Part shown: positions 3,301 to 40,518 of the stretch, one piece after another
How positions within the stretch are numbered: the first letter of the stretch is position 1
Layout of the letters: the number at the start of each line of letters is the position of its first letter
DNA from: Patescibacteria group bacterium
GTDB taxonomy: Bacteria; Patescibacteriota; UBA1384; CAJBMM01
Assembly (NCBI GenBank): GCA_041660565.1
Contig: JBAZWC010000002.1
Span: 149,520-213,519 of the forward strand
Direction: 5' to 3'
DNA: 64,000 nucleotides
Program-made: the position numbers and the translations under genes
Notes under the pieces: model-generated
Told to the model about the DNA's origin: nothing
The model's input: the letters and a program-made list of their open reading frames with translations, nothing else
Database searches by the model: none

Positions 3301-5147
3301 GGTTTAATCTCGTATAATTGGCTGTTAGGGTTATTTACTATTAATGTAGCGTGACTGATAAAATACTGCTCAAGGGCAATTCCGTTATCGGTATAAGCGC
3401 CCCAATTTTTTAAGTCAATAAACTTTTGGCGCAATCGCACGTCAACCGCCAGTAATTTGATCTTATTTTGGCTGATAAAACCGGCATAATCTGAATCGCT
3501 AGGGACGGCATAGGTGTAACTATTACCGTTTTCTAAATAATACTGAGCGGTGTGATTCCAAATATTCAACGTTACGACACCTTGATAATGATGGTTAATG
3601 TAATCCGTCACCAGTGCAAAATCGCCCAGCTTATAACGCAAATAGGCGCTTTCACCAATGCGCCCGGTGGCGTACGCCGCTTCTTCCACCTTAAATGTAT
3701 CATAAAATAGGGAATTTAGAATACGTCTGGTCGGAACAAAAGGATTTAGACTGTTAATTATCACTACCGCGATCAGAATAACTCCACCGACTTTGTAGGC
3801 AATCGGCTTTAGGTTTGACAAAGTGATGGCAGATAAAATTGATAGTACTACCAACGCCGGAAACAAAAATCGCTGTTGGTGACTAATGACAAAAAACCAC
3901 GCCACAATGTCGACTACGACCAAGGAAGACAATAGCAGTGTAGTGCGACGATTTTTAGGATTGAGAAGGGCAAACGGGGCGAAAAATGATGAAAAGATGA
4001 ATAGATTATAATATCCGGCGGTATTCTGCCAAAATATCTCCGGAATACGTAGAAAATTGGTCAACGTGCGCGGAACTGAGAAGTTTTTGATCGCCGCGTT
4101 TAAGGTATTAATTTCATTATCGGTATATCCCGGGTGAACCAAAATTAGCGGATAGGTGGGATTATGAAATACGATCCAGTTTTTGACGTACCAAAACCCA
4201 CCTACCAGCGCGGCGATTCCGGTAAAATACAACATAGTTTTAAGAAATTTCGCCGACCACTGACGACGAACCGTTAAGAATATTGCTACCACCACCACTG
4301 TGGTCAAAATACCATAAAAAGCCGAGTATTTGATTCCCGCTGCTGCCCCAAAAAAGAATCCGGATAACCAAATATAACGCTCGGATTTTGATTCAAGCCA
4401 CGCTGTCATCGATAAAATAGCCATTACCTCCATCACCGCCTCGCCTGCGTCGATGTAACCACTAGTGGCGTTCTCGATTAGTTGAGGCACAAAAAATATC
4501 AATATAGCAGCAATAAGGCCGGTATTGAGCGAATACCTCTTGTGCAAGAACCCAATAATTGCCACCATCATCGCCAAAAAGTAGCTAAAGTGCAGCAAAT
4601 GCATTAACGATACACCTTTAACCATCATTCCAAACGCAAAGAGGGTCTCCATGGATATTGGCAAATTGCCATAAAATTTCGACCCGCCTAGCGGCAAAAC
4701 GAATCCGGATTGATGAACGATGTAATTTGCTTCGGGTAAATGATAAGCCACCTCATCCCAGGCAGTGGCAGGCGCAAAACAAGCTAAAATGTTTACACCG
4801 GCTAAGATAATCAACGGGATAAGCAGCCATTTTTGTTTCTTAATTTCCGCTAAAATATTCCGGCGGTCTATGCGGCGTTTGCGCAGTTGTTTAATTTCGC
4901 CCAGAGCGACTAGAAACATCGCCACAGCGGCAATTGAAACAGTCCAGCCGTTAAACCACCTTAATATGCCCAAAAACTCAAGTAGGAGTACGAATATGGT
5001 CAAGCCAATAAGATACGAAGACGCGACGACAAACAACTTACTTTCGGGTAAATTAAATACCAACCGCCATACCCTTTGCCCCGCGAGTGTAACCACAGCA
5101 ATAAATAACAAAAAAATTGATAGGGTAATAAGCAAATTTAAGATCAT
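3297..5147 (-). CDS. GT-C fold membrane glycosyltransferase (ArnT/PMT, GT39/GT83-like).
   Basis: 616 aa with more than 10 TM helices in the N-terminal two-thirds and a soluble C-terminal domain. Loop motif 'WDEVAYHLPEA' carries the DE motif of the PMT/ArnT family. Confidence 0.5.
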   Translation of the reverse strand: MILNLLITLSIFLLFIAVVTLAGQRVWRLVFNLPESKLFVVASSYLIGLTIFVLLLEFLGILRWFNGWTVSIAAVAMFLVALGEIKQLRKRRIDRRNILAEIKKQKWLLIPLIILAGVNILACFAPATAWDEVAYHLPEANYIVHQSGFVLPLGGSKFYGNLPISMETLFAFGMMVKGVSLMHLLHFSYFLAMMVAIIGFLHKRYSLNTGLIAAILIFFVPQLIENATSGYIDAGEAVMEVMAILSMTAWLESKSERYIWLSGFFFGAAAGIKYSAFYGILTTVVVVAIFLTVRRQWSAKFLKTMLYFTGIAALVGGFWYVKNWIVFHNPTYPLILVHPGYTDNEINTLNAAIKNFSVPRTLTNFLRIPEIFWQNTAGYYNLFIFSSFFAPFALLNPKNRRTTLLLSSLVVVDIVAWFFVISHQQRFLFPALVVLSILSAITLSNLKPIAYKVGGVILIAVVIINSLNPFVPTRRILNSLFYDTFKVEEAAYATGRIGESAYLRYKLGDFALVTDYINHHYQGVVTLNIWNHTAQYYLENGNSYTYAVPSDSDYAGFISQNKIKLLAVDVRLRQKFIDLKNWGAYTDNGIALEQYFISHATLIVNNPNSQLYEIKP

Positions 5148-7060: not shown

Positions 7061-8265
7061 ATTTGATATGTTTTAATTAATTTTGATACCGAATTTGAGA
7101 GAGAAAAGTGGTCTACAAAGCGAACCGTATTTTTTTGCAATGTCTTTTGCAGATCAGTATTGCTTAATATTTGTGATGCCGCTTCAACGGCTGACCCAAC
7201 GTCATCCACTACCCTACCAACGCCCATCTGTTCGATCTCGGGTAGATTACAATCTTTGGAACAAACTACCGGCACCCCTAACGCCGAAGCTTCAAGAACG
7301 GTCATAGGAATACCCTCCGATCGCGACATCAGCAAAAACAAATCGGAGCTTTTCACTACAGATAGTTTTTCTTTGCCCGACAATAAACCAGTATATATTA
7401 CATTATCTGAGATTTTCAATTCTAAGGCAAGTTTGTCTAAATTGGCTTTTTCACCTTCATCCGGGCCAATAATCAAAAAAACCACGTTCATGCCGGGTTT
7501 TTTTAATTGTTTGATAACCTGAAAAGCAATATCCAGTCCTTTAATGTACTGAATTCGCCCCACGAACGAAATCACTTTTGACTCCGGCGCAAGATCAAAT
7601 TTTTGCACCAAGTTAACTTTTGGCACATCTAAAAATTCTAATGGATCCACTCCATTGGTAACAACGACCACCTTACTTTTGACACTCGGATAAAGTACTG
7701 AAATATCTGATAGTTCTTTGGGTGAAAGCGCAATGACCGCGTTCGCACGATCAACAATGCGATGAAATAACCGAATAAATGTAGTTTTGACCCACGATAG
7801 TTTGGCTTGGCGACTAACCAATGATAACACACCATGAGGTTGGACCACGTATGGCACATCATTTGCAACGCAAACACGACTGGTAATGATGTTTTGGACC
7901 GTAAAATAATCGTGACAGTGCACTACGTCAAAATTTTTAACATTTTTTTTCATCCACCCCGCAAACCCGAACGGTAGATAAAAGTTATGAAATTTCGCCA
8001 AATTGTTGCTGGGATTACGAAAACGAACAATTTGGATGCCGTCGATAGTCTCTGCGGTTTTGTTAATGCGATGAGGTGCGTCTCCGGCGTCAGAGGTAGC
8101 CACCGTTACCTTTATCCCCCGCTTTACCAATTCGCAAGCTTGATTATACGCTACCCGTACCACCCCACCGTAACTCCATGCCGGTGCAAAATACGGAATC
8201 ACCATTAGCACGCTTTTTATCTGACGCGGCTTCGGCCCTAAATCAATCTCGCTCTTAGCCATCAC
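7057..8265 (-). CDS. GT4 (GT-B fold) glycosyltransferase.
   Basis: 402 aa. C-terminal 'EGIPMTVLEASALGVPVV' matches the GT4 'EGFGlpvlEAmacGvPVV' signature. Confidence 0.7.
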   Translation of the reverse strand: MMAKSEIDLGPKPRQIKSVLMVIPYFAPAWSYGGVVRVAYNQACELVKRGIKVTVATSDAGDAPHRINKTAETIDGIQIVRFRNPSNNLAKFHNFYLPFGFAGWMKKNVKNFDVVHCHDYFTVQNIITSRVCVANDVPYVVQPHGVLSLVSRQAKLSWVKTTFIRLFHRIVDRANAVIALSPKELSDISVLYPSVKSKVVVVTNGVDPLEFLDVPKVNLVQKFDLAPESKVISFVGRIQYIKGLDIAFQVIKQLKKPGMNVVFLIIGPDEGEKANLDKLALELKISDNVIYTGLLSGKEKLSVVKSSDLFLLMSRSEGIPMTVLEASALGVPVVCSKDCNLPEIEQMGVGRVVDDVGSAVEAASQILSNTDLQKTLQKNTVRFVDHFSLSNSVSKLIKTYQI

Positions 8266-29155: not shown

Positions 29156-29248
29156 GGAGAGGTACCCAAGTGGCTGAAGGGGCGGGTTTGCTAAACCTGT
29201 AGTAGGCCGTAAGGCTTAGCGAGAGTTCGAATCTCTCCCTCTCCGCCA
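29156..29248 (+). tRNA. tRNA-Ser (anticodon GCT), type II with long variable arm.
   Basis: GGAGAGG acceptor, GCT anticodon in the 'TTGCTAA' loop, long extra arm, GTTCGAATC T-loop, G73 discriminator, encoded CCA. Confidence 0.85.
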
Positions 29249-29350
29249 TCCTTCGCTAACGCTTCGGAATGGCAAGCCATTTTGGAGCGATTAGTGAAGG
29301 AAAAGGAGAATTGGTATTCCGTAGCATTTGCGTAGGATACCTCTCCGCCA
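29239..29350. repeat. 112-bp perfect inverted repeat, left arm: tRNA-Ser 3' end plus 92-nt trailer plus a second copy of the 10-nt tRNA 3' end.
   Basis: 29239-29350 is the exact reverse complement of 30662-30773. Both arms begin and end with 'ctctccgcca' (the tRNA-Ser 3' end). Confidence 0.85.
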
Positions 29351-29391
29351 CGCTTAGCGTGGCATTTGGGACGCTCAGCGTCCCGCCATAT

Positions 29392-29467
29392 GTGCCTGTA
29401 GCTCAGTGGATAGAGCGTCAGATTGCGGATCTGAAGGTCGGAGGTTCAAGTCCTCCCAGGCATACCA
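29392..29467 (+). tRNA. tRNA-Arg (anticodon GCG as read).
   Basis: GTGCCTG acceptor (G1:U72), 'TAGCTCAGTGGATAGAGCG' D-arm typical of tRNA-Arg, anticodon loop 'TTGCGGA', GGTTCAAGTCC T-arm, encoded CCA. Confidence 0.75.
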
Positions 29468-29521
29468 AGCCAAAATTTCAAATTTTAAATTCTAAATTTT
29501 AAAACATTAAGGAAGCTCTTA

Positions 29522-29974
29522 ATGGATCAAGCGGAGTATCGTTCTAATCCTAACAATCTCTATCACATTTCTTGTGGCGGCGTGGTTTATCGTCAAAATA
29601 ATCAAAAAACTGAAATCGCTCTCCTCTACAAGAACAAGCGCACTGCATGGAATTTACCAAAAGGAACATTGCATCACAATGAAACTCTTGAACGCTGCTG
29701 CCTGCGCGAAATCAAAGAAGAAACTGGCTTCGAAACTATCGTTGAACAGTATCTTGGTGCGCTGACAGACCAGTGGTTCGATGAAACCCAAGGATACGAC
29801 ATCGATAAAACAGTGCATTATTTTCTGTGCAAATACGTTCCGTCTGGCAGCGAGATAATGGATGAAGAACACGACCGTGTTGAGTGGCTTGATGTCACGA
29901 AAGTTAGAGAACTCCTAACCGAGGGTCCAAAAAACGAGCATTTGATTATTGATCGAGCTGCTTTGCATTTTTGA
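29522..29974 (+). CDS. NUDIX hydrolase.
   Basis: 150 aa. Nudix box 'GTLHHNETLERCCLREIKEETGF' (Gx5Ex7REUxEExGU). Confidence 0.75.
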   Translation: MDQAEYRSNPNNLYHISCGGVVYRQNNQKTEIALLYKNKRTAWNLPKGTLHHNETLERCCLREIKEETGFETIVEQYLGALTDQWFDETQGYDIDKTVHYFLCKYVPSGSEIMDEEHDRVEWLDVTKVRELLTEGPKNEHLIIDRAALHF

Positions 29975-29978
29975 TTGA

Positions 29979-30224
29979 TTGTGCCAGAATATAAATATGG
30001 CAGATGATAACGACAAAAAACCAATTGAAAGCGATTTAGGGCAAGTTTTTGCATTCAAAAACGATATTCGCTGGTATGCCAGTGCGTTTGGCATTGCTGT
30101 AATTTTGATCGCTATTGCCTTTGTAGCGAAAGATTATCTGTTAATTTCACCCTGGATAACCGTTGCCGCCATTACTGTTTGTCTGATAGCTTTAATAGCA
30201 CACGGCCTGCAGCAGAAAAAATAA
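29979..30224 (+). CDS. Small membrane protein (two TM helices).
   Basis: 81 aa. Acidic N-terminus, then 'WYASAFGIAVILIAIAFVAK' and 'WITVAAITVCLIALIAHGL' helices. Confidence 0.35.
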   Translation: MCQNINMADDNDKKPIESDLGQVFAFKNDIRWYASAFGIAVILIAIAFVAKDYLLISPWITVAAITVCLIALIAHGLQQKK

Positions 30225-30256
30225 TTATTTAGTATTTTCATTGACCAAACCACCAT

Positions 30257-30499
30257 ATGGTGGTATTTTGTTGTTGGAAGGGAGACGGACTAATGGACGA
30301 AGTGTCTGGAGTAGTGAAGGGCATTGATCCGACCATGGGTCATATCGCCGTGGACGTTCTCGACGAAGGCATCCGACACGTTGTTCGCGCAAAGGTGCGT
30401 GATAAGGTCTCAGAAGGCGATCCGGTGGTGGTAACCAGAGCTCGCGGAACCGAGATCATCACAAGCGTTCGTCTGGCAAACTCGGGCGTTAGCAGGTAG
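30257..30499 (+). CDS. Small hypothetical protein.
   Basis: 80-aa ORF followed by two hairpins and a T-tract (terminator). Composition slightly GC-richer than the flanks. Confidence 0.3.
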   Translation: MVVFCCWKGDGLMDEVSGVVKGIDPTMGHIAVDVLDEGIRHVVRAKVRDKVSEGDPVVVTRARGTEIITSVRLANSGVSR

Positions 30500-30550
30500 C
30501 GACGCCACACTCCCTATTCAATCATCGGCCGAAAATTTCGGCCGCTCCAC

Positions 30551-30579
30551 GACGGCCGGCCTCCGGTCGTCTTTTCTTA
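30551..30579 (+). terminator. Rho-independent terminator candidate downstream of 30257..30499.
   Basis: Hairpin 'gacggccggcctccggtcgtc' followed by 'ttttctt'. It is preceded by a second perfect 9-bp-stem hairpin, 'cggccgaaaatttcggccg', at 30526-30544. Confidence 0.5.
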
Positions 30580-30630
30580 ACAAAAAAGGATTGAGTATTT
30601 AATCAATCCTCTATTCTCCACATTCCAAAT

Positions 30631-30773
30631 TGGCTTGCCATTCCGAAGCGCTAGCGAAGGATGGCGGAGAGGTATCCTACGCAAATGCTACGGAATACCA
30701 ATTCTCCTTTTCCTTCACTAATCGCTCCAAAATGGCTTGCCATTCCGAAGCGTTAGCGAAGGATGGCGGAGAG
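30631..30773. repeat. Right arm of the 112-bp inverted repeat (30662-30773) plus a 41-bp tandem partial copy (30631-30671).
   Basis: Arm 30662-30773 is the reverse complement of 29239-29350. The sequence 'tggcttgccattccgaagcg(c/t)tagcgaaggatggcggagag' occurs at 30631-30671 and again at 30733-30773. Confidence 0.85.
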
Positions 30774-30853
30774 GGTGGGATTCGAACCCACGAGGAGCTT
30801 GCACCCCTGACAGTTTTCAAGACTGCTGCACTAGACCACTATGCGACCTCTCC
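30764..30853 (-). tRNA. tRNA-Ser (anticodon TGA), type II.
   Basis: The reverse complement reads GGAGAGGTCGCATAGTGGTCTAGTGC...CTTGAAA (anticodon TGA)..., a long variable arm, ...GGGTTCGAATCCCACCCTCTCCGCCA. Confidence 0.85.
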
Positions 30854-34907: not shown

Positions 34908-35294
34908 ATGAACGAACAAGGATTTGGATCACCGGAAAAAGAAGTAAAAAGCCCTGAAGAGGCTAGAGCGGAGGCAGCTGATCGAGATTTGCGAAAGCTG
35001 GCCGAGTTAAGAGAATCCGGAGAGATCGAACCAGAAGATTTTCCGATCGACACTCTATTACAGCTTAATGAATACGACCAGCCAGTGGCTCGCAAAGATG
35101 CTGGGAATCAGGCAATCGTGATTAACCCTGGCCAATTCGAAGAGTTAGGATACATTGACTTTGTTGGGGCGGGCGGAGAGTTAATTACACTCGACTTTGA
35201 AGATCAAGTTACAACGCACCCGCTGATAATTTTCCCATCCGAACTCGGCGACTTACCAGAAAATGTCATTCCGGGCCCGGCTCAGAATTTATAA
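34908..35294 (+). CDS. Acidic hypothetical protein.
   Basis: 128-aa ORF, strongly acidic (E/D-rich), no recognisable motif. Confidence 0.3.
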   Translation: MNEQGFGSPEKEVKSPEEARAEAADRDLRKLAELRESGEIEPEDFPIDTLLQLNEYDQPVARKDAGNQAIVINPGQFEELGYIDFVGAGGELITLDFEDQVTTHPLIIFPSELGDLPENVIPGPAQNL

Positions 35295-35820
35295 TAATAA
35301 AGTTTACTTTTCCAGCATAATTATCTCGCACAGTGTATATCCCAAGGCTATGCCCGGCTTGATAGCCATTTATCGTGTTTGGGAGAGCTTGAATAGAATA
35401 TGAGTTACACAGACTGTTGAGTCTGATTAATTCTTGAAAATCCGTATCGTTTGAGACGACTACTACTCGGTTAGATACCAGCAGTACTCGTACTATTTCA
35501 GGATTAATTTGATTAAGTAACATGTCAATCTTATTCTTGACGGTGATATTCAGCTGTTCGACATTGCCTTTTCCTCGATTGCATAATAGACACAGGGTTT
35601 GATAGTTATTCAGATCTCCCGATCCCCCCTTGGAGAAAGGCTTAATGTGGTCAGCCTCCAGTTTGACCGCGTCGATCTCCAACTCAGGGTATAAAGAAGG
35701 AGACTTGCCACAAGACCGACAAGTAAAATTATCCCGTTGCAAAATTTGTAATCTTTTTTTGGCCGAAACAGGTGGCCGGCGCTTATTCTCCATTTGTTTA
35801 AAATCCCTTAACGATATCAA
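35266..35820 (-). CDS. HNH endonuclease-domain protein.
   Basis: 184 aa. 'CRSCGKS...LEADHIKPFSKGGSGDLNNYQTLCLLCNRGKGN' is the HNH motif with its Cys4 zinc site. Confidence 0.65.
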   Translation of the reverse strand: MISLRDFKQMENKRRPPVSAKKRLQILQRDNFTCRSCGKSPSLYPELEIDAVKLEADHIKPFSKGGSGDLNNYQTLCLLCNRGKGNVEQLNITVKNKIDMLLNQINPEIVRVLLVSNRVVVVSNDTDFQELIRLNSLCNSYSIQALPNTINGYQAGHSLGIYTVRDNYAGKVNFIIINSEPGPE

Positions 35821-39906: not shown

Positions 39907-39996
39907 TGGCGGAGACGAGAGGATTTGAACCTCTGAAGGGCTTGCACCCTTACCGCGTTTCGAATGCGGCGCAATCAACCACTATGCGACGTCTCC
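39907..39996 (-). tRNA. tRNA-Ser (anticodon CGA as read), type II.
   Basis: The reverse complement reads GGAGACGTCGCATAGTGGTTGATTGCG... anticodon loop TTCGAAA ... long variable arm ... GGTTCAAATCCTCTCGTCTCCGCCA, with G73 discriminator. One mismatch in the anticodon stem. Confidence 0.7.
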
Positions 39997-40251
39997 ATTT
40001 AACTTCGTTATTATATCACGATATTGCTGTTTTAGTAACCGCTTCCCCTCAGTCGTTTTTAGAAATCTTTCGCGCCTCTGTGCATCGGTTTTAAGCGCGT
40101 AGCACTCGTACCCGATTAAGGTTAATGGTCGCTTGAATTTTGTCGACGTTACGCCACCTTGATTATGTTGACCAACGCGTCTTTTTAAATCGCTGGCACT
40201 ACCAGTATAAATATGACTGTCGTTTTGCATTAAAAAATAAACATAGTACAT
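39982..40251 (-). CDS. GIY-YIG nuclease-domain protein (YhbQ/UPF0213-like).
   Basis: 89 aa. 'YYVYFLMQNDSHIYTGSASDLKRRVGQHNQG' is the GIY-YIG signature. The last ~20 codons run through a duplicated segment and 15 nt of the tRNA-Ser(CGA) 5' end, so the functional CDS probably ends earlier. Confidence 0.55.
   Translation of the reverse strand: MYYVYFLMQNDSHIYTGSASDLKRRVGQHNQGGVTSTKFKRPLTLIGYECYALKTDAQRRERFLKTTEGKRLLKQQYRDIITKLNGDVA
39984..40043. repeat. About 60-bp direct repeat, copy 1: tRNA-Ser(CGA) 5' end plus upstream flank.
   Basis: 'atgcgacgtctccatttaacttcgttattatatcacgatattgctgttttagtaaccg' recurs at 40433-40492 with two mismatches. Confidence 0.8.
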
Positions 40252-40432: not shown

Positions 40433-40492
40433 ATGCGACGTCTCCATTTGACTTCGTTATTATATCACGATATTGCTGTTTTAGTAACCGTT
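40433..40492. repeat. About 60-bp direct repeat, copy 2 (displaced tRNA-Ser 5' end plus flank).
   Basis: Near-identical to 39984-40043. Lies at the left edge of the GC-rich patch 40500-40920. Confidence 0.8.
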
Positions 40493-40518
40493 TCTTCCTG
40501 GCTTGATTTGTTTCGACT

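Follow-up and report, generated by a model that had tools for sequence, protein, structure and literature searches.

Convergent tRNA-Ser genes of a Patescibacteria bacterium followed by two identical copies of a probable miniature mobile element

Results

A 64,000-nt stretch of contig JBAZWC010000002.1 from a Patescibacteria group bacterium (hereafter, the window) contains two tRNA-Ser genes that point at each other and are followed by the two arms of a perfect 112-bp inverted repeat. We consider it probable that each arm is a 91-bp copy, lacking an open reading frame (ORF), of a family of small mobile elements that live 3' of Patescibacteria tRNA genes. On this reading, the inverted repeat arose incidentally from two separate insertions and is inverted only because the two tRNA-Ser genes face each other. 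The copies, termed here mini-elements or minis, are comparable to miniature inverted-repeat transposable elements (MITEs); the two are identical, and one lies behind each of the convergent genes.

tRNA-Ser(GCT) occupies positions 29156–29248 of the plus strand (ARAGORN; Rfam RF00005, 54.9 bits) and tRNA-Ser(TGA) positions 30764–30853 of the minus strand (ARAGORN, Rfam). The last 11 nt of both genes (29238–29248 and 30774–30764) are CCTCTCCGCCA, designated T, and the same 11-mer recurs after the trailer as a second tRNA-Ser 3' end, T', at 29340–29350 on the plus strand and 30672–30662 on the minus strand. According to blastn, 29239–29350 and 30773–30662 are identical over all 112 nt, and a repeat search extended the inverted pair to 139 nt at 95% identity (29220–29358 and 30654–30792), because the two tRNA-Ser genes also have most of the T-arm in common. 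Together with Pfam, these analyses confirmed the perfect inverted repeat that the initial annotation had described around tRNA-Arg, a NUDIX hydrolase gene and two small ORFs. The trailer is, as described there, identical behind both tRNA-Ser genes and followed by a second CCTCTCCGCCA, but it is 91 nt long rather than 92. A 31-nt piece of it had three matches in the window and none in 100 shuffles. Within the 64 kb, an nhmmer profile and blastn found no other copy of the trailer or its units, so that the window holds two copies plus one remnant, all at tRNA-Ser genes; relatives were found in other genomes.

Copy 1 (29249–29339, plus strand, 91 nt) and copy 2 (30673–30763, minus strand) are 100% identical and contain no ORF. 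Each comprises an end unit A (29245–29273 and 30739–30767, respectively), a unit A* (29277–29301 and 30711–30735) and an end unit B (29313–29341 and 30671–30699); the nhmmer unit matches in copy 1 were at 29245–29274 and 29341–29313. The A unit reads (G)CCATCCTTCGCTAACGCTTCGGAATGGC, its first bases being the tRNA discriminator and CCA, with GCCA common to the unit and the tRNA end. The B unit, GGTATTCCGTAGCATTTGCGTAGGATACC, runs straight into T'. Since A and the reverse complement of B are identical at 21 of 29 positions, the two are mirror-image ends, and one degenerate pattern matches these terminal inverted repeats in both orientations in the window and in at least 120 metagenome contigs. 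In a mini, a short interior lies between two inverted-repeat ends, each of which is bordered on its outer side by a target copy, the 11-nt CCTCTCCGCCA standing as a direct target repeat on both sides of both window copies. A and A* together form a 53-nt hairpin (29249–29301) with four G-U pairs, one bulge and no A-C pair, and the 143-nt region folds at −77.9 kcal/mol (z = −9.2 compared with shuffles).

The T' of copy 2 is directly followed by A2 (30624–30661, minus strand), an older truncated copy. A2 and T' together (30624–30672, 49 nt) are 96% identical to 30726–30774, which gives a 102-nt period; the tandem partial copy noted previously is hence present, but longer than the 41 bp assigned to it. 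Insertion behind tRNA-Ser(TGA) is serial, as seen from this decayed third copy, and the same process is visible in another contig, L031 (4791–5126; examined loci carry L numbers), where tRNA-Ser(TGA) is directly followed by a 109-nt mini repeated 3.1 times in tandem (98% identity), each copy ending in CCTTCCGCC.

Two other readings of the units were tried and rejected. B and T' can be drawn as a tRNA-like minihelix, paired to a complementary strand further upstream, in the window, L012, L053 and L094; other minis pair A with B, and the structure is not general. An IS200/IS605-type mechanism was discarded as well: A and B are true mirror-image ends, not same-strand hairpins, and there is no Y1 gene.

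To place the units in a wider context, the trailer 19-mer GCTTCGGAATGGCAAGCCA was scanned against one genome per species. It gave nine matches, five of them with an extended motif, in Patescibacteria and Saccharibacteria genomes, including sites directly behind tRNA-Asp and tRNA-Asn. In a Saccharibacteria metagenome-assembled genome (MAG), the motif directly follows tRNA-Asn and is itself followed by a GIY-YIG-like ORF, whereas in a Patescibacteria MAG (L009) it follows tRNA-Asp, with a second A, a B and a tRNA-Asp-end repeat 1.6 kb further on; two further contigs carry it in frame within protein genes. The 19-mer had no match in viral contigs. In 140 instances of the unit, the dinucleotide on its left flank covaries with the one on its right (CC/GG 60, GT/AC 37, CT/AG 29), and this Watson-Crick covariation of the outer bases means that the unit is a real hairpin, or palindrome. 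The A unit is an imperfect hairpin of approximately 30 nt that begins directly after the discriminator base, its 5' arm including CCA or CTA. Of 93 A-type units, 53 stand behind tRNA 3' sequence (31 next to ARAGORN-called tRNAs and 22 after T-loop-like fragments), compared with 2% of random positions, while none of 42 B-type units was at a tRNA 3' end. With the window copies included, the host isotypes are Gln, Ser, Asn, Trp, Asp, Leu, Lys and His.

ORF-less minis with 30–57 nt between A and B stand behind other tRNAs in L012, L094, L053, L045, L049, L057, L062, L063/L077, L079, L103 and L111; in L012 the order is that of the window, namely tRNA-Ser(GCT), mini, tRNA-Arg(GCG). Single A-type units also occur in frame inside long ORFs (L004 5100–5125, L006 1641–1680, L014 9256–9281, L087 1542–1570), in different frames and in either orientation. 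Read from their motifs, the ORFs that host them are putatively a ComEC-like metallo-beta-lactamase, an RluA-type pseudouridine synthase, a ribosomal protein S1-like protein and MurC. Head-to-tail arrays of A units with a 32-nt period, or degenerate second units, stand directly behind a tRNA in L016 (31–120) and likewise in L056, L021, L067, L131, L121 and L110.

A full-length element of approximately 340–360 bp was found in other genomes and contigs, and none in the window. It consists of A, a gene for a GIY-YIG nuclease of approximately 97 amino acids, B overlapping the end of the ORF, and T'. Such an ORF lies within a few bases of A in 24 of the 81 A units with enough downstream sequence. 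It matches PF01541 with an E value of about 1e-15, and the nearest solved structure is that of the UPF0213 protein 1zg2. Tyr5, Tyr16, Gly18, Arg26, His30 and Glu62 are invariant in 27 nuclease sequences and correspond in residue type to what we take to be the catalytic set of GIY-YIG enzymes. The ORF stops inside B, the first arm of which provides the codons for G-I/S-P-K. The full-length ORF has one more B-like unit close to its 3' terminus, encoding S-V-A-L-E-K-D, and A* of the window resembles it. This resemblance suggests that the minis may be internal deletions that kept both ends.

T' of the family mostly extends from C61, the first base of the 3' strand of the T-stem, to the discriminator, i.e. 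over 11–16 nt: 16 nt in L037, L092 and L085/L130, 14 nt in L117, L101 and L043, and 11 nt in L069. A tRNA-end repeat of at least 10 nt flanks 15 of 24 distinct A...B elements, compared with 4% when flanks are paired at random. The length of the repeat varies, unlike that of a fixed-stagger duplication. As an independent check, four nuclease homologues were picked by protein similarity alone and their DNA was then examined. Each of the four is bracketed by an A-like unit on one side and a B-like unit on the other. Two are located behind ARAGORN-called tRNAs (Ser-CGA and Gln-CTG) with repeats of 15 and 14 nt; of the others, one follows a tRNA-3'-like fragment (15-nt repeat with one mismatch) and one has a partial repeat only. 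Among 432 nuclease homologues, all named sources are Patescibacteria lineages, with identities of 68–89%. In six of the seven loci L092, L110, L117, L121, L042, L101 and L051, GIY-YIG genes or fragments are grouped in twos or threes within 1–2 kb of each other; in L092 the second gene is on the opposite side of the host tRNA from the first.

Discussion

From these results, a hypothesis regarding the spread of the family may be formulated. The nuclease of a full-length copy would break DNA at tRNA 3' ends, and repair would copy the element in. The tRNA-end repeat might arise in two ways: as a target duplication from staggered cuts, or because the element brings its own gene 3' end and displaces the resident end downstream, by analogy with the mobile ORFs (mORFs) of fungal mitochondria. 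The cassette, which has no promoter, could be expressed by read-through from the tRNA promoter, and its hairpin ends may be what the nuclease or the processing machinery recognises. Minis might be moved or copied in trans, or spread between tRNA-Ser genes via their shared 12-nt end, and A2 would be an older copy pushed outward by a newer insertion. As to which copy of the tRNA end fits the tRNA 5' strand better, a comparison meant to tell a carried from a duplicated end, the picture is mixed: the downstream one in L053, the upstream one in L028, L045 and L111. L085 and L105 have the same flanks and different cargo after the A unit.

Several observations weigh against mobility of this kind. The window copies contain no nuclease gene, and the only GIY-YIG gene in the 64 kb (39982–40251) is of a different subtype, 35–45% identical to the A/B-type nucleases, so that a trans-acting partner of the minis in this genome is hypothetical. 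The interior of the minis resembles the 3' end of the full-length ORF only weakly above shuffles, with p of about 0.05 in one of three comparisons. A bare GIY-YIG domain is a hydrolytic nuclease that is not known to make 11–16-bp target duplications. A blastn search of the element flanks against all fetched loci retrieved no empty site, and the nearest relatives of the neighbouring glycosyl-hydrolase gene, with at most 65% protein identity, lie in unrelated contexts without synteny. The 68–89% identity of the nuclease across named lineages is unusually high conservation for a selfish gene, and in one Levybacteria population the gene stands in one fixed context in 24 of the 24 contigs read; owing to this conservation and fixed context, the nuclease could be a domesticated resident gene. 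Moreover, folding is better for the tRNA-sense than for the antisense strand in 11 of 13 minis, which would fit a role as RNA, and the trailers may have such a role in addition.

With these points in mind, we put forward only as a tentative possibility, for which we would not claim an even chance, that the A–GIY-YIG–B cassettes constitute a new class of autonomous mobile element of approximately 350 bp. Its only protein would be the nuclease of approximately 97 amino acids; it would target tRNA 3' ends through its hairpin ends, duplicate 11–16 nt, be borne by tRNA transcription and shed minis and single units, even in frame in essential genes, and the window would display a fresh double insertion of a mini. 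An element of this size would be smaller than any insertion sequence known to us.

The identity of the arms starts where the two tRNAs become identical and stops at the last base of T', with unrelated sequence beyond, and the flank shared beside the element amounts to 11–12 nt on either side. This pattern fits two insertions of one active copy. It is also what repair copying via the 12 nt common to both tRNA-Ser ends would produce, and the window repeat starts at tRNA position 66, exactly the part common to both tRNA-Ser genes, and not at C61 as in most family members; copying between the tRNA-Ser genes is therefore slightly favoured. A related explanation is that a single old insertion was followed by gene conversion that kept the arms identical through concerted evolution. 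The common 3' end and T-arm, reflected in the 139-nt extension, as well as the start at position 66, argue for it. On the far side, however, the arms share only the 11-nt T' (CGCTTAGC... versus TCCTTCGC...), which is very short for RecA-driven conversion, and repair copying primed by such short homology would in effect be the homing proposed above. The A2 remnant, furthermore, speaks for an earlier independent insertion at the tRNA-Ser(TGA) site. We thus regard such conversion as unlikely. The identity had been attributed to recent gene conversion or recombination; its recency holds, but conversion is unnecessary, as the bounds of identity are those of the element plus its repeat.

Alternatively, the trailers might be a conserved functional RNA, that is, co-transcribed hairpins kept by selection for 3' processing, transcript protection or termination. 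The A units start exactly at the discriminator and CCA, the outer stem covaries, the sense strand folds better in most minis, the window hairpin has four G-U pairs and no A-C pair, and the units are widespread behind tRNAs. Rfam, however, gave no match for the trailer: at gathering and permissive thresholds it returned the tRNAs plus chance-level matches only. No T run follows the A/A* hairpin, the real terminators being located further downstream. The units form tandem arrays, flank a nuclease gene, are bounded by tRNA-end repeats and also sit in either orientation inside the protein genes listed above. Finally, although trailers of this kind are very common behind tRNAs of the clade, they are not the ubiquitous companion of tRNA-Ser genes that a conserved processing element was expected to be: many isotypes are affected, and the distribution is patchy, tRNA-Ser(CGA) and tRNA-Arg of the window having no units. 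Patchiness, the many isotypes and the sites in protein genes are better explained by selfish DNA than by a universal processing signal, and a purely RNA-based explanation appears improbable to us.

Two further explanations can be set aside almost entirely. A direct repeat of a tRNA 3' end is the classic signature of integrase islands, and the duplicated ends had been regarded as serial scars of attachment (att) sites; they would be attL/attR remnants of tyrosine-integrase islands deleted down to approximately 100 bp, as L009, with several partial tRNA-Asp 3' ends around a putative XRE regulator/metallopeptidase ORF pair, might illustrate. Serial insertion-site repeats they are, as A2 and L031 demonstrate, but of a mobile element without an integrase: none was found among the window ORFs of 24–36 kb (seven checked with Pfam) or within the full-length elements, in which the GIY-YIG nuclease gene is the sole ORF. 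Intact elements measure only about 350 bp, and the same conserved end units accompany the repeats of many different tRNAs; att scars are accordingly a very remote prospect. Equally little credence can be given to a programmed invertible cassette, a DNA switch with a site-specific recombinase, for which the perfect 112-bp inverted repeat around a gene-bearing 1.3-kb segment would be the natural argument. Pfam detected no recombinase or invertase domain in the seven ORFs at 27.8–35.8 kb, only an HNH nuclease; the units stand singly, with no inverted partner, behind hundreds of tRNAs; and a flip would only exchange the tRNA-Ser neighbour, so that with a terminator of its own on each side the segment has no visible on/off logic.

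Inversion of 29351–30661 by occasional homologous recombination is, on the other hand, plausible, because a 112-bp perfect inverted repeat is long enough: RecA-type recombination between the arms could invert the 1.3-kb interior. It would merely swap which tRNA-Ser precedes tRNA-Arg and the NUDIX gene and which precedes the end with A2 and the terminator. The short-read contigs of the same run break inside or next to the repeat (L001 corresponds to 29418–30691 and L002 starts at 30826), which is inevitable in a de Bruijn assembly, and are therefore uninformative as to orientation; exact-protein matches of the window genes were likewise only fragments of the same run that end at or near the repeat. 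The orientation of the segment in the assembly is to be taken with some caution. In L103, L109 and L111, tRNA-Ser(GCT), tRNA-Ser(TGA) and tRNA-Arg(GCG) are clustered on one strand, hence the convergent layout of the window is derived. It was not created by inversion between these repeats, because both tRNA-Ser genes lie outside them.

The interpretation of the arms as minis of a mobile family can be compared with several known systems. MITEs are miniature transposon derivatives that lack an ORF and have terminal inverted repeats as well as target-site duplications. The window minis are similar in being ORF-less and short (91 bp), in their inverted ends A and B and direct target repeat, in having longer ORF-bearing relatives and in repeated insertion at the same kind of site; they differ in that their relatives encode a GIY-YIG nuclease of approximately 97 amino acids instead of a DDE or HUH transposase, the flanking repeat of 11–16 nt is always a tRNA 3' end, and the end units are hairpins. 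A second comparison is segB of phage T4, which reportedly lacks both hairpin end units and a duplicated tRNA end and encodes a protein with a DNA-binding part, unlike the single bare domain plus short tail of the element described here. The segB gene is a free-standing GIY-YIG homing endonuclease gene in a tRNA gene cluster, and it resembles the present case as a small GIY-YIG gene next to or between tRNA genes that is thought to spread via a DNA break and repair copying (PMC2330249). A GIY-YIG domain with an intact catalytic set, as expected of a homing element, is present in the family, and the window copies have no ORF.

The mORFs of fungal mitochondria carry a duplicate 3' end of the gene they invade, e.g. 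atp6 of Allomyces and atp6, atp9, cox2 and nad3 of Glomus (PMC3630166). Their order of gene body, working 3' end, endonuclease ORF and displaced second 3' end is like that seen here (PMC3630166), but they invade protein genes of organelles, whereas here bacterial tRNA genes are affected, 11–16 nt are duplicated and the end units are hairpins. The REP, BIME and REPIN (RAYT) sequences and the Rickettsia palindromic elements are likewise short imperfect hairpin units found single, paired in inverted orientation or arrayed, and, as with the Rickettsia elements, single units of the present family occur in frame within protein genes. In contrast to the REP/REPIN-RAYT system, they flank a GIY-YIG gene and no Y1/HUH (RAYT) gene, prefer tRNA 3' ends and have tRNA-end repeats. 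In the Candidate Phyla Radiation (CPR), rRNA genes contain sparse GIY-YIG-encoding insertions that are neither group I nor group II introns (PMC11270868). These share with our family the phylum, the nuclease superfamily and non-intron insertion into stable-RNA genes; they were described for rRNA genes only, the term 'tRNA gene' being absent from the main text, and the comparison is one of descriptions (PMC11270868). None of these systems combines hairpin inverted ends, a bare GIY-YIG gene, targeting of tRNA 3' ends and tRNA-end repeats, and no description of the element family was found in the full-text literature searched, which does not span all journals.

The inverted repeat itself is ordinary, two copies of an insertion, while the family to which it belongs is apparently undescribed. 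The repeat exposes a very abundant, conserved family of tiny nuclease cassettes at tRNA genes throughout Patescibacteria. If these move by means of their own nuclease, a GIY-YIG-based, tRNA-targeted type would be added to bacterial mobile DNA, and the minimum size known for an autonomous element would be lowered. The cassettes would also help to account for several traits of these small genomes: unusual tRNA trailers, partially duplicated tRNAs, short stretches inserted in frame into proteins, and assemblies that break at tRNA genes. For practical work, repeats of this type can yield broken or mis-oriented assemblies and spurious ORF calls in MAGs.

Other features of the window and related loci

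The segment between the repeats begins with a native spacer outside the repeat (29351–29391, plus strand) that has two small palindromic hairpins. These lie within 29348–29388, between T' and tRNA-Arg, as the perfect palindromes GCCACGCTTAGCGTGGC and GGGACGCTCAGCGTCCC with the common core ACGCTNAGCGT; GGGACGCTCAGCGTCCC is followed by GCCA, and both hairpins are unrelated to the A and B units. Then come, all on the plus strand, tRNA-Arg(GCG) (29392–29467; ARAGORN, Rfam), the NUDIX hydrolase ORF (29522–29974, 150 amino acids; PF00293, E = 1.8e-15) and the two small ORFs (29979–30224 and 30257–30499), which had no match in Pfam. Back-to-back terminator-like hairpins at 30551–30571 and 30612–30585 close the plus-strand unit and the tRNA-Ser(TGA) unit, respectively. 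The interval 30257–30580, with the 80-amino-acid ORF and the terminator, is a local peak of GC content (0.54–0.56 compared with about 0.40 in neighbouring intervals) and may be of foreign origin within the segment between the repeats. A free-standing HNH endonuclease ORF (35266–35820, minus strand; PF01844, E = 4.5e-11) adjoins a second NUDIX gene.

The fourth tRNA gene of the window is tRNA-Ser(CGA) (39907–39996, minus strand; ARAGORN, Rfam). The GIY-YIG gene at 39982–40251 (minus strand, 89 amino acids) lies directly upstream of it and has its stop codon inside the tRNA; all three tRNA-Ser genes of the window therefore bear traces of GIY-YIG elements. This gene is flanked by a 62-nt direct repeat (39984–40045 and 40433–40494, 97% identical), which takes in the first 13 nt of the tRNA and the terminal part of an earlier nuclease ORF, now decayed. 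Between the two repeats, at about 40352–40315, is a pseudo 5' half of a tRNA-Ser. A resembling 5'-end duplication was seen in L012, where a tandem duplication upstream of tRNA-Arg(GCG) (approximately 7260–7400, minus strand) takes in about the first 12 nt of the tRNA.

In L009 (790–3800), the 3' end of tRNA-Asp recurs behind the gene in three further partial copies (approximately 2395–2425, 2516–2530 and 3760–3795). These bracket a 161-amino-acid ORF with no match in Pfam together with the ORF pair mentioned above, which by sequence reading encodes a putative XRE-type regulator and a putative metallopeptidase with a HEIGH motif. The terminator downstream of tRNA-Asp is duplicated (59 nt at 83%). 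In the same locus (4600–4780, minus strand), tRNA-Ser(TGA) is immediately followed by a GC-rich, probably structured stretch of approximately 150 nt, the genome being AT-rich elsewhere. Finally, the RluA-like ORF of L006 contains, at about residues 55–80, a second GC-rich, low-complexity in-frame stretch, PGNACPAGNSHPSGRSPARSGG, which may be another kind of inserted repeat.

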